A stretch of 64,000 bases of DNA from Cystobasidiomycetes sp. EMM_F5 (Eukaryota), in contig JBPGPT010000019.1 of assembly GCA_051047955.1 (NCBI GenBank), forward strand, positions 124,001-188,000, given 5' to 3'. Positions within the stretch are counted from its first letter, which is position 1, and every line of letters starts with the position of its first letter. The notes under the pieces are model-generated. The model saw only the letters and a list, made by a program, of their open reading frames with translations, searched no databases and was not told the origin of the DNA. A program made the translations under genes and the position numbers. This document shows, one piece after another, positions 44,461-47,864 of this stretch.

Positions 44461-45882
44461 ATGTCGCAGCTCAAGTCGGTCACCCAGCCCAAGCGAGTCC
44501 TGTCGATACAGAGCCATGTTGTCGTCGGCCATGTAGGTGAGCAGCGAGCCATTCATTGATTGCAATACTGCACGTCTCGGCGTCATTTCACCATGTCCTG
44601 ACGTGTATTCTTTGTCCCGTATCGCTCTCGCTGCATCGTCCGCATTGTGGTTTCTGCAAAAACACCGTTTGCTCAAAATTTCAATCCGGTCAGGGAACAA
44701 GTCTGCGACCTTTCCGTTACAGCTCCTGGAGTGGGACGTCGATGTCTTGAACACTGGTACGTCTGCTATCAGACCATGATGCCCGGTCGACTGGCTCACG
44801 GTCTTTCATGGCATAATCTGCAGTCCAGCTCTCAAACCATACAGGTAGGATCCAATTCAGCCCAATAATTGCAACTCGGACTGACCGTGTACTCATCACC
44901 GTCCTGCTCCAGGTCCGCGTAAATCTGCCTGCATCTCGTTCCCGCTAGCTTAGCAAGCTCAAATTTCGACCTTGTTCGGTACATATTCCGCAGGCTATGG
45001 TCGATGGGGCGGGCTGCGCATGGATGCTGCACACCTCACGGAAGTCTTTGACGCGATGGATCAGAATGGTTTGCTGCGGCATTCACATCTGCTGACAGGT
45101 CAGTGTCATTGTCCCTGACTAGCACGCAAGACAAGTAACATGTCAAAACAGGCTATGTCCCAAGTCCAGAAGCTCTGCAAGCTGTTGCCAAGATGGTGGA
45201 CCGACTCCTCGAAGTAAATCCTAAATTGGTATACATTCTTGATCCAGTTCTCGGCGATGATGGTAAAATATATGTGTCGCCCGAAACGATACCCATCTAC
45301 AAGTCCATACTACCCAAAGCGACCTGCGCTACACCCAATCACTTCGAAGCCGAGCTCCTTACAGATGTCAAGATCACCGACCTCGCGTCGCTCAAGCGTG
45401 CACTGACCGCGTTCCACGATCGTTACAACCTTCCTCATGTCATCATTTCTTCAGCACCCTCTGCGCAGTTAGCCGACGTCCCGAAAGCTCACCTAGTCTG
45501 CGCGGGATCTTCGCGGCCGCGCGGATCAACTGTAGATCAGCAATTCTTCATCACGTTCCCCAGCTTGCCAGAGCATTACGAAGGAGTTGGCGATGTCTTC
45601 TCTTCCCTTGTCCTCGCAAACTTCCAGCGACCTCAAGGCGGACTCTGCCCGCTATCGCGAACAGCAGAGCTCGCTATAGCATCGTTACAGGGCATCTTGC
45701 AGCGTACGCGGGAACACGCTATAGCCTCGATAGGACAACAGATTGATATAACGGGCTCGGATCGGAATGAAACGCCAGAAGACCGGATACGAAGGCTCAT
45801 AGGAGTCGAGCTGAGACTGGTGCAAAGCTGGAAGGATATTCGAGAACCGACCGTAATATACACGGCCAGACCGCTTTCATGA
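44461..45882 (+). CDS. BUD16: Pyridoxal kinase
   Basis: RVLSIQSHVVVGHV|GNKSATFPLQLLEWDVDVLNT|VQLSNHTG|YG, HLLTG|Y, YILDPVLGDDGKIYV, TPNHFEAELLT and GVGDVFS motifs. Confidence 0.95.
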
Positions 45883-45920
45883 CGTGAGTTTATTCATCCA
45901 CACTCTACTCTACACCTCCT

Positions 45921-46017
45921 TCACATGATGAGCAACATTTTGTCGCCCCAGTCCGATTGTTCCATGGAGGATTGACTAAACAGCACAAGCCAAACACAGT
46001 GCACTATTTCTGATTCT
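45921..46017 (+). ncRNA. Box C/D snoRNA, snR67/U31-like (guide for the LSU P-loop Gm)
   Basis: C box ATGATGA at 45925-45931, guide TGTCGCCCCAG at 45941-45951 (antisense to conserved LSU CUGGGGCGGCA), D' CCGA at 45953-45956, D CTGA at 46010-46013. Lies inside the GTGAGT(45884)...ACTAAT...CAG(46088) intron. Confidence 0.85.
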
Positions 46018-46151
46018 TCACGACCCATGCCGTTTCTCAAAATTCTTGTTGTCGAGTCGGTGTGACTAATCCGTGCTCTGCCTTGCAGATCTTATCAGAA
46101 AGAATGGAGTCGCAAATTGTGAGTGCAGCTTCATCCTCCACACTTCCACCC

Positions 46152-46249
46152 TCTCAAGATGAACAAACACATCTTACCATCAAATTCTTACGCCTTCGCG
46201 CGATGAAGATGCCTTTTTACACTATAATTATATCATTTCCTCTGAAACG
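46152..46249 (+). ncRNA. Candidate box C/D snoRNA (18S 5'-domain guide)
   Basis: C-like AAGATGA at 46156-46162, TACCATCAAAT at 46175-46185 (antisense to SSU AUUUGAUGGUA, recalled), D CTGA at 46242-46245. Lies inside the GTGAGT(46119)...GCTAAT...CAG(46298) intron. Confidence 0.6.
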
Positions 46250-46395
46250 TCTATCGTAGTCTGCATACGTCGCAAATTGTGCTAATGCAGTCCCTCAGTT
46301 TGTCACCGCAGTGTCAGGTCATAATTGGGGTAGTTCATGCGCACACTTAGACGGGGTGAGTGATTGTCTTTCTATACATCCACAACCCCACGCTT

Positions 46396-46500
46396 TGTCA
46401 CGATGAAAACACCATATTCCATGCTAGTTCCAATGAAGCGACCTCGATGTCGCCTTCAATGCGGACGCAAATTGTATTCTAAGAACGGCTAGCTGAACCT
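46396..46500 (+). ncRNA. Box C/D snoRNA, snR53-like double guide
   Basis: C-like ACGATGA at 46400-46406, guide TATTCCATGCTAGT at 46415-46428 (antisense to SSU AUUAGCAUGGAAUA), second guide CTAAGAACGGCTA at 46479-46491 (antisense to SSU UGGCCGUUCUUAG), D CTGA at 46493-46496. Lies inside the GTGAGT(46356)...GCTGAT...CAG(46566) intron. Confidence 0.8.
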
Positions 46501-46648
46501 TCACTCTTCCACCACCTTCATGCCGGTACTTGTGCTCATTAGCTGATGGCAGCATTGTGTCAACAGGCAATGCGTTGAGGGTCATAGAGCAGAATGTTTA
46601 GTCAGTCTGTAGCATAGAGTATCGGAACCAGTATCGGGCAAGAGTGCA

Positions 46649-47666
46649 TTACAAATTCGCGTACTCTGCCTCCACTTGCGTCCTTATCTCCTTTGCAATG
46701 ACTCCACGCGCCGCGCCACTTTCCGAACAACCTTGCATCCGTCGCTTGACCTCATCTGCTATCTGGCGCTGATGATAGTCTTGCTCTTGACGCTTCTGTA
46801 GCAACTGATCCTGCTTCAATTGCCACTCGCGATACTCCTCAACACGGCCCGCCCGCTTTAGGATGGCCAATCGTACTTCTGCGATCGAAGGCAGGTTATA
46901 GCCAAAATCGCTGGTCACGAGTAGCCGCCGCTCATCCCATTCTTGTATCATTCGACTCTCTCCCCGACTTGCCTGCTTGTCGCTTCTGTAGAATCGCCAT
47001 AGCGGTCGGCCAGCGAGCCTGCCATTTTCAATCCACGTAAATACGGCTTCGATGGTAGCAAAGCCAGCTTCGTATTCGCCAACAGACAGATTCAAGAGCG
47101 TCAATAAATGTGAGACCTGTCTAGTGGTTAGAAAGCCAGGCTCGTTGGTCTTGGGTGTATTGGTGTACAAGCCTTTTTCGGTGAGATGTAGGCCTGCACA
47201 GTGCAGCAGATGGCAAATGATGTGACCTGCACGACAGCAGATGAGCTAGACACTGCTAGCCAAGGCGATCGGTCGGGAACGTACCAAGACGACCATAGCT
47301 GTGCGTGAAGACCAGCATGTCTATCTCATCCGCATCGCAAATATGCACATCGACTTGTGCATATCTTTCTTTCGCGGCATTTGTTGATTCTTCATCCAGC
47401 AACACGAGAAAGTTTGAAGTAGGGGATGCTTTGATGCTGTCTACAGCTCGTAGGGCATCGCAGACACCGCTATGATTCGTTTCGGCCAGCGGCGTATGAA
47501 CGAGGAAATCGACATCTCCATGCGTTGCCTTCTCAGGTTCCAGCGGGGGTGTGCGAACACATGCGTACAGGGGTGTCAATGCCAGTAGTGCTGCACTGCG
47601 CACGATGTTGTATTCCTCAATGCTTAGCCGCTGACTCGTCCGCACACCGAATGCTTTTCCACCCAT
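46649..47666 (-). CDS. Uncharacterised protein with a Pol-beta-like nucleotidyltransferase signature (2 exons)
   Basis: MGGKAF start, EKATHGDVDFLV (DxD motif), AQVDVH (third acidic residue), FTHSYG|HII...GLHLTEKGLY. Confidence 0.7.
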
Positions 47667-47864
47667 CGCGTAGAGTCAGCCAATTCAGCATTGGATTAGA
47701 ATGTAAGGGAATTGCGGTAGGAATACAAGACTTTGGACTGCCCCCATTGTTTGGGCTGTCAGTGGATGACTCGGCAGAGTACCGGTGGCGATCAGGTCAG
47801 CGCAAAACGGGGCGAGGTCACGAAGGACGGGCGAATCTGGATGTAGACCGTATACTTGTGCTCT

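Follow-up and report, generated by a model that had tools for sequence, protein, structure and literature searches.

The box C/D small nucleolar RNAs (snoRNAs) snR67 and snR53 are encoded together in Saccharomyces cerevisiae, where the pair makes up one of five snoRNA polycistrons (10.1101/352906). In Neurospora crassa, 45/55 box C/D snoRNAs are intronic, and five clusters that are conserved with yeast reside in UHG-like host genes with one snoRNA per intron (PMC2780460). CD11, the N. crassa homologue of snR53, and CD26 are both intronic and both located on chromosome I (PMC2780460), and CD26 belongs to the snR67 family (PMC5824354); we infer that the two are members of one cluster. Five conserved snoRNA clusters have also been described in Candida, and in Candida parapsilosis RNA-seq established that CPAR2_601470 has two introns in its 3' untranslated region (3' UTR), each with one snoRNA (PMC5033589). 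Here we describe a related arrangement in a 64,000-nt stretch of DNA from Cystobasidiomycetes sp. EMM_F5 (assembly GCA_051047955.1, contig JBPGPT010000019.1, positions 124,001 to 188,000 of the forward strand), which we refer to as the window. Directly 3' of a pyridoxal kinase (BUD16-like) gene there are three intron-like units, each with one set of C and D boxes. Judging from the sequence, we think it likely that three box C/D snoRNAs are encoded here as a cluster, each within an intron, which is the form taken in filamentous or intron-rich fungi by the snR67-snR53 polycistron of yeast, with an extra lineage-specific unit in the middle.

The units and the exons between them are arranged as follows.

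45884..46088, plus strand: intron-like unit 1, 205 nt, with a GTGAGT donor at 45884, a CTAAT branch-like site at 46066 and a CAG acceptor (TTGCAG, ending at 46088)
46089..46118, plus strand: spacer exon of 30 nt between units 1 and 2, the 3' end of which, AATGGAGTCGCAAATTGT, resembles an internal piece of snoRNA 3
46119..46298, plus strand: intron-like unit 2, 180 nt, with a GTGAGT donor at 46119, a CTAAT branch-like site at 46282 and a CAG acceptor (CCTCAG, ending at 46298)
46299..46355, plus strand: spacer exon of 57 nt between units 2 and 3
46356..46566, plus strand: intron-like unit 3, 211 nt, with a GTGAGT donor at 46356, a CTGAT branch-like site at 46543 and a CAG acceptor (CAACAG, ending at 46566)

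The first-pass annotation of this DNA had placed three consecutive introns at exactly these coordinates, each opening with GTGAGT, having a branch site and a CAG acceptor and holding one C...D unit, with exons of 30 and 57 nt between them, and we located every one of these signals where it had put them. The branch-like sites are 16-23 nt 5' of the acceptors in all three units. Each of the three contains one C box and one D box in the right order, namely ATGATGA and CTGA in unit 1, AAGATGA and CTGA in unit 2, and ACGATGA and CTGA in unit 3. The C boxes of units 2 and 3 each have one mismatch to the consensus RUGAUGA, with the GAUGA core kept. The C-to-D spans are 89, 90 and 97 nt in units 1, 2 and 3, within the ~60-120 nt of box C/D snoRNAs. 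Measured from the 5' splice site, the C boxes of units 1, 2 and 3 lie at 41, 37 and 44 nt, and the gaps between the D-box ends and the branch-like sites are 53, 37 and 47 nt. The sequence has the features of an intronic cluster: one snoRNA per intron, canonical splice signals, and a distance from snoRNA to branch site that suits splicing-dependent release. In N. crassa, intronic snoRNAs are found mainly 41-60 nt from the 5' splice site (PMC2780460), and the spacings predicted for the units in the window fit those of published intronic snoRNAs.

We combined these signals into a composite pattern (GTRAGT, 25-60 nt, NGATGA, 55-110 nt, CTGA, 25-70 nt, CTRAY, 8-30 nt, YAG). It matched exactly three times on the plus strand of the window, at the three intervals listed above, and 0 times on the minus strand. 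Second-order Markov simulations of the window (n = 200) gave a mean of 0.045 matches and a maximum of 2. With three matches against 0.045 expected, the observation of three units is confirmed; the combined splice and box signals are real and far beyond chance.

This result bears directly on whether the units are spliced. S. cerevisiae makes snR67-snR53 as a polycistron (10.1101/352906), and processing by RNase III and Rat1 is covered by papers cited in the references of PMC5033589, which favors a model where the units in the window stay unspliced and, as in S. cerevisiae, RNase III plus exonucleases cut the snoRNAs out of a read-through polycistron; the splice-like signals would then be mere remnants. 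We consider this very unlikely, given three perfect GTGAGT donors, CTRAY sites at the right distance before YAG acceptors, and snoRNA-to-branch distances of the splicing type. The published filamentous-fungal and Candida clusters are also spliced (PMC2780460, PMC5033589).

We also observed a C-rich motif, TTCATCC(TCC)ACAC or TACATCCACA, located 5-20 nt 3' of all three GTGAGT donors (45887-45904, 46127-46144 and 46373-46384; repeat families D3 and D6). This shared motif may reflect common descent of the three introns. YTTCAC-like motifs are also present beside several of the C and D boxes.

The snoRNA in the first unit has the following parts.

45921..46017, plus strand: snoRNA 1, a box C/D snoRNA of the snR67/U31 clan (CL00053), detected with Rfam in E-value mode and with a homologue in the metagenomic locus L060 (described below)
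45925-45931: C box, ATGATGA
45936-45952: D' guide
45953-45956: D' box, CCGA
near 45969: C'-like GGATTGA
45984-45997: element GCACAAGCCAAACA
46010-46013: D box, CTGA

We are confident in annotating unit 1, by its resemblance to the family models, as a snR67/U31-type snoRNA. When positions 45700-46800 were searched with Rfam in E-value mode (E<=10), there were eight matches, seven of which overlap unit 1. The best of those is snR67 (RF01177), which aligns over the full model (1-83) with 34.8 bits and an E-value of 5.6e-5. The alignment covers the C box, the guide UUGUCGCCCCAGUC followed by the D' box CCGA, the C'-like GGAUUGA, CCAAACAC, and the D box. The D' guide together with CCGA aligns to the guide in the snR67, U31b, TBR7 and DdR13 consensus sequences, and the guide core CGCCCCAGUC is common to U31b, TBR7 and DdR13. 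The snR67, human U31 and plant U31 (AtU31) snoRNAs are tabulated as guides of one conserved Gm in the large subunit (LSU) rRNA (PMC3511168), and the conserved D' target of the snR67 family corresponds to yeast 25S-2619 (PMC5824354). A second target reached through the D guide, yeast 25S U2724, occurs only in Saccharomycotina (PMC5824354).

The 14-nt element GCACAAGCCAAACA of snoRNA 1 is identical in L060 (minus strand, ~880-893), though it was outside the pattern used in the search that returned that locus, and it coincides in part with the CCAAACAC in the snR67 consensus of yeast. The motif CCAAACA is conserved, and its distance to the D box varies among the window, L060 and the Rfam consensus. 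Because GCACAAGCCAAACA lies at different distances from the D box in the window and in L060, the element may not be a methylation guide, and it may instead be an accessory element that pairs with rRNA. On the yeast 25S sequence, it could presumably make such a contact immediately 5' of the G2619 duplex.

To score guides against rRNA, we used as stand-ins the eukaryotic ribosomal DNA (rDNA) contigs that contaminate bacterial assemblies. The 16 longest were scanned, and those with primer landmarks were oriented and used; L037 and L015 contain complete 18S genes, and L006 extends into the 28S to ~2.2 kb. Guide duplexes were scored under the fifth-nucleotide rule, with 200 shuffled guides as the null. 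At least 58 contigs (L001-L058) in bacterial assemblies and metagenome-assembled genomes (MAGs) carry the eukaryotic ITS4 primer site. The longer rDNA contigs look fungal in several Streptomyces, Pseudonocardia and Nocardia assemblies and plant-like in two Collinsella MAGs. Such contigs are eukaryotic contaminants in assemblies of prokaryotes. For the LSU 3' third of eukaryotes, a primer-site scan of viral contigs gave 0 hits, a pattern search of 10 contaminated assemblies gave none, and a DNA search returned only the known rDNA contigs plus weak matches that we took to be bacterial 23S.

The snoRNA in the third unit has the following parts.

46396..46500, plus strand: snoRNA 3, a box C/D snoRNA of the snR53/CD_11 type, with two complementarities to 18S and a homologue in L060
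46400-46406: C box, ACGATGA
46415-46428: D' guide
46430-46433: inferred D' box, CCAA (degenerate)
~46437-46457: internal hairpin
46479-46491: D guide
46493-46496: D box, CTGA

We annotate unit 3 as a snR53-type snoRNA, again with confidence, on the strength of its predicted pairing with 18S. Its D' guide forms 14 bp (one G:U) with 18S ATTAGCATGGAATA, at ~790-803, in the fungal contigs L037 and L015. Its D guide, which ends 1 nt before the D box, forms 13 bp (one G:U) with 18S TGGCCGTTCTTAG in 7/16 of the rDNA contigs. The scores under the fifth-nucleotide rule are 26.5 (D') and 24.5 (D), compared to a mean of 16.3 (standard deviation 2.3) for shuffled guides; a score of 26.5 was reached by 0/200 shuffles and a score of 24.5 by 1/200. 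The A selected by the D' guide is position 2311 of L037, or ~18S 793 when counted from the NS1 primer site, and is the predicted equivalent of yeast A796. The same 18S position is the target of N. crassa CD11 (18S-Am793) and of yeast snR53 (A796), and a U6 small nuclear RNA (snRNA) target has also been predicted for this guide (PMC2780460, PMC5824354).

The D guide of unit 3 predicts 2'-O-methylation at the first C of 18S GGCCGUUCUUAG (L037 position 2794, about C1279 in yeast numbering). We take this site to be a few nt 3' of the snR55 and snR40 sites, next to the Um1269/Gm1271 region in yeast numbering. The D guide of Pezizomycotina-type CD_11 is predicted to target 25S, at 25S-359 and 25S-790 in N. 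crassa (PMC5824354), and for the D guide of unit 3 we found no complementarity of at least 10 bp to the first 2.2 kb of 28S.

A metagenome scan with the C box and D' guide of unit 1 as the query returned nine loci, one of which, L060 (53% GC), is informative. L060 carries a snR67-like and a snR53-like unit, housed in adjacent intron-like units (198 and 207 nt) with a 52-nt exon between them, and the distances from the boxes to the splice sites are similar to those in the window. Like GCACAAGCCAAACA, the D' guide of its snR67-like unit is identical to the one in the window. The snR53-like unit has a canonical D' box, CTGA, and a 4-bp GCCC/GGGC terminal stem. Under the fifth-nucleotide rule it picks out the 18S A and C that unit 3 also selects, with scores of 22.0 and 26.5. 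This canonical D' box fixes the otherwise ambiguous D' box of unit 3 at CCAA (46430), since both select the same A. By sequence comparison, the predicted second guide of unit 3 is conserved in two distant contigs, the window and L060. The cluster in L060 lies 3' of an ERCC4/MUS81-like gene and 27 nt 5' of the ATG of a phospholipase C gene, in the position of its 5' UTR. The closest named relatives of this phospholipase C are from Tremellomycetes, which would be consistent with a non-Pezizomycotina lineage. Because L060 keeps the snR67-like/snR53-like pair beside other genes, it is the snoRNA pair that is conserved and not the host.

In the eight loci other than L060 there was no snR53-like guide nearby. 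Seven loci, six with low GC (28-38%) and one with 70% GC, were set aside as unrelated lineages, each with a single intronic U31-like snoRNA. The six low-GC loci (L059, L062, L064, L065, L066 and L067) have a U31-like snoRNA with the same D' guide, and a second guide common to them, ATCGTA, mostly as ATCGTACTGT, is found before the D box. In 5/6 of them, the U31-like snoRNA is just after a GTAAGT donor, which suggests that these are intronic U31 homologues of a protist or algal lineage. In L063, a stem-flanked U31-like unit is followed by further C/D-like boxes.

Several results weigh against reading the locus as a cluster of three snoRNAs. At gathering thresholds, Rfam has no match anywhere in the window, and the 34.8 bits of unit 1 are below the snR67 gathering score of 55. 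For unit 3, no Rfam model matches, and snR53 (RF00338) is absent from 45700-46800 even at E<=10, so that the identity of this unit rests on its guides and their targets; its D' box CCAA is degenerate and was itself inferred. Scored against 18S, 5.8S and the initial 2.2 kb of 28S, which stop short of the LSU 3' third with its expected target, the guides of unit 1 reach 13.5 (D') and 16.5 (D). By eye, there is no 4-5 bp complementarity that could form a terminal stem in the immediate C/D flanks of any of the three units; intronic box C/D snoRNAs often have no terminal stems. L060 is the sole related locus among the nine returned, and it does not keep the linkage to BUD16. Unit 2 adds a lack of any Rfam match at E<=10 in 45700-46800, guide scores of 17.0 and 17.0, which equal the shuffle mean, against the same rRNA set as unit 1, and the absence of a counterpart in L060.

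The middle candidate has the following parts.

46152..46249, plus strand: snoRNA 2 candidate (orphan), recognized by its boxes and spacing
46156-46162: C box, AAGATGA
46187-46190: possible D' box, CTTA
46200-46206: C' box, GCGATGA
46242-46245: D box, CTGA

The first-pass annotation had a third snoRNA between snR67 and snR53, and of this proposal the boxes and the spacing hold up, while a family match, a target above chance and a counterpart in L060 were not found. These shortfalls, the very AT-rich DNA 5' of the unit 2 D box, and the traces of local duplication described below all favor a simpler account, in which only the snR67-type and snR53-type snoRNAs work and unit 2 is either a decayed duplicate or an intron with C/D-like boxes that arose by chance. 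We regard this as quite possible, though somewhat short of an even chance. Unit 2 keeps the GAUGA core, has a C' box and a D box with no mismatch, measures 90 nt from C to D, and is correctly positioned relative to the 5' splice site and branch site; a box set and placement this intact would not be expected after free decay. The scoring also covered stand-ins for 18S, 5.8S and the initial 2.2 kb of 28S, and a target may lie in the fungus's own rRNA, the LSU 3' third, snRNAs or tRNAs. The D' region of unit 2 does have an 11-bp match to 18S near position 120, but only in L021, L027 and L034, which have G at one variable position. We take the rDNA in those three contigs to be plant-like. A likeness to N. 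crassa CD25, a guide for 26S A846, was rejected because there is no complementarity in the 28S region scanned. On balance, we lean toward unit 2 being a working snoRNA, at a little better than an even chance.

The origin of unit 2 can be partly read from repeats. An exact 13-mer, GTCGCAAATTGTG, occurs at 46109-46121, across the boundary of exon 2 and donor 2, and again at 46269-46281, just before the branch site of intron 2, and an 85% copy of it is found inside snoRNA 3 (46464-46476). Exon 2 also contains an 18-mer that shares 83% identity with the C' region of snoRNA 3. The best local alignment between intron 2 and intron 3 has a z of 3.6, with 1/300 shuffles reaching its score. These repeats suggest that exon 2, donor 2 and the branch region of intron 2 were built from duplicated snR53-like sequence, and unit 2 is probably a lineage-specific unit derived as a local duplicate of such sequence.

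The question of which transcript hosts the cluster depends on the gene that precedes it and on the sequence that follows it.

44461..45882, plus strand: pyridoxal kinase (BUD16-like) coding sequence, 5 exons, 331 aa, based on an in-frame exon model (44461-44536, 44694-44756, 44824-44844, 44994-45098 and 45152-45882), Pfam and structure alignment, with the stop codon TGA at 45880-45882
46567..46650, plus strand: putative terminal non-coding exon of the host transcript, the end given being where a long minus-strand open reading frame (ORF) stops and not a mapped 3' end

The last exon of the kinase matches Phos_pyr_kin in Pfam (E 8.9e-14) and aligns with pyridoxal kinases in PDB, up to residue 309/312 of the human enzyme. 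Given that the alignment reaches this far, the TGA is where the protein naturally ends, which puts the first donor 1 nt into the 3' UTR, just as the first-pass annotation had it (GTGAGT starts at 45884). There is no plus-strand gene within ~2.6 kb 3' of the cluster, where minus-strand ORFs come next, followed by a weak minus-strand HAD-like match. From this layout we have a slight preference for the BUD16 pre-mRNA as the host, with the three introns in its 3' UTR. Co-transcription with the kinase is favored because there is 1 nt between the stop and the donor, there is no room for a promoter, the kinase transcript would run into unit 1, and no plus-strand gene follows.

The same snoRNAs could also come from a separate, non-coding UHG-like transcript that starts in the last BUD16 exon, with the BUD16 mRNAs being polyadenylated inside unit 1. 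In N. crassa, little coding potential is present in the hosts of the five clusters shared with yeast (PMC2780460), the spacer exons in the window are tiny and without an ORF, and the cluster in L060 is not tied to BUD16, all of which fit a host of this kind. A separate host would, however, require a promoter inside a coding exon, and any BUD16 transcript would still have to read through a consensus GTGAGT donor located 1 nt beyond its stop. PMC4138321 yielded no promoter motif that suits this lineage. There is also the Candida precedent of snoRNA introns in the 3' UTR of a protein gene (PMC5033589), and altogether we find a separate host rather unlikely. If BUD16 is the host, every transcript that releases the snoRNAs carries exon junctions 3' of the stop, since the three snoRNA introns begin 1 nt after it. 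If the fungus also has junction-dependent nonsense-mediated decay, the output of this B6-salvage kinase would be linked to snoRNA production.

Two of the coding introns of the kinase gene (44537-44693 and 44845-44993) are unusually long, at 157 and 149 nt compared to 67 and 53 nt for the others. Neither contains a TGATGA C box by eye or a match to the composite pattern. On the minus strand, two stop-to-stop ORFs, 46649-47245 (198 aa) and 47256-47675 (139 aa), converge on the snoRNA cluster. Neither has a Pfam family. For the 198-aa ORF, searches of the near and the longer length classes gave no homologue, and its ESM Atlas matches, like those of the kinase exon, were uninformative as to function or lineage. 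These ORFs may be an orphan gene or may not be a gene; if they are a real gene, its 3' end would overlap the last exon of the host transcript.

If the BUD16 pre-mRNA is the host, we would expect the cluster to be expressed as follows. RNA polymerase II would read through from the pyridoxal kinase gene into the cluster, each of the three introns would be spliced out and its lariat debranched, and exonucleases would trim the intron down to a C/D core of ~90-97 nt protected by the small nucleolar ribonucleoprotein. The classical papers on this route of splicing, debranching and trimming are cited in the references of PMC5033589. The D' guide of snoRNA 1 would then direct 2'-O-methylation of the LSU G equivalent to yeast 25S G2619, the U31/snR67 site. 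For snoRNA 3, the D' guide would direct modification of the 18S A that corresponds to yeast A796, where snR53 acts, and the D guide would specify methylation at another 18S site, the first C of GGCCGUUCUUAG. The candidate orphan snoRNA 2 would have been born by local duplication of snR53-like sequence. All of these steps, from transcription through splicing and processing to methylation, we infer from analysis of the sequence and from the systems described above. The full combination of a BUD16 mRNA host, a unit 2 that is a young lineage-specific snoRNA with its intron, donor and branch site made from duplicated snR53 pieces, and a snR53 D guide that directs an undescribed 18S Cm is improbable as a whole.

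The locus is of use in several ways. It provides two confident snoRNA annotations with predicted targets in fungal sequence that had no annotation, and the donor 1 nt after the stop makes it a simple test case for distinguishing a 3' UTR-intron host from an overlapping non-coding host. Through its second guide, the snR53-type snoRNA is predicted to direct methylation of an 18S cytidine, which the published accounts examined do not report. Unit 2 and the repeated 13-mer GTCGCAAATTGTG suggest that a new unit of intron plus snoRNA can arise by local duplication. The BUD16 arrangement, the unit in the middle and the C targeted in 18S were all absent from the text of the published fungal snoRNA accounts examined, and the supplements of Liu et al. 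2009 and Canzler et al. 2018 may list them.

Compared to the snR67-snR53 cluster of S. cerevisiae, the window has the same two families linked in the same 5'-to-3' order. As the first-pass annotation proposed, the pair is present in one-per-intron form, at the level of sequence, with unit 1 identified by similarity to Rfam and unit 3 by pairing of guide and target. The yeast cluster is a polycistron with spacers between the snoRNAs, whereas the window has one intron-like unit per snoRNA and a third unit between the two. The spacing of the D guide in snoRNA 1 departs from that of yeast snR67, and the second guide of snoRNA 3 is not among the features of yeast snR53 reported in the papers examined.

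The UHG-like clusters of N. crassa resemble the window in form: there too, each snoRNA has an intron of its own with canonical splice signals, the non-coding exons are tiny, and the clusters are conserved with the yeast polycistrons (PMC2780460). The differences are that the D guide of CD11 is predicted for 26S A356, while the D guide of snoRNA 3 pairs with 18S, and that the N. crassa hosts are described as separate genes with little coding potential, while the first donor in the window abuts the stop codon of a protein. In this last respect the window is more like CPAR2_601470 of C. parapsilosis and its orthologues, where snoRNA introns are located 3' of a protein stop codon with one snoRNA each (PMC5033589). 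The Candida snoRNAs are snR58 and LSU-C2809, in another host gene and in two introns, whereas there are three in the window and the first starts 1 nt after the stop. The CPAR2_601470 host was demonstrated by RNA-seq, while co-transcription with BUD16 is what the arrangement of the window suggests.

L060 also has consecutive snR67-like and snR53-like units, with similar spacings and the same two predicted 18S targets. It has two units before a phospholipase C gene, and the window has three after a pyridoxal kinase gene. Given the one-per-intron clusters of N. crassa (PMC2780460) and the 3' UTR-intron snoRNAs of Candida (PMC5033589), both host arrangements and the intronic form of the snR67-snR53 pair have precedents, and the novelty implied by the first-pass annotation was set too high. 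The arrangement is well-built but ordinary and leaves current snoRNA biology unchanged. It is valuable as a clean, annotatable case of the yeast snR67-snR53 cluster in its ancestral, intronic form.

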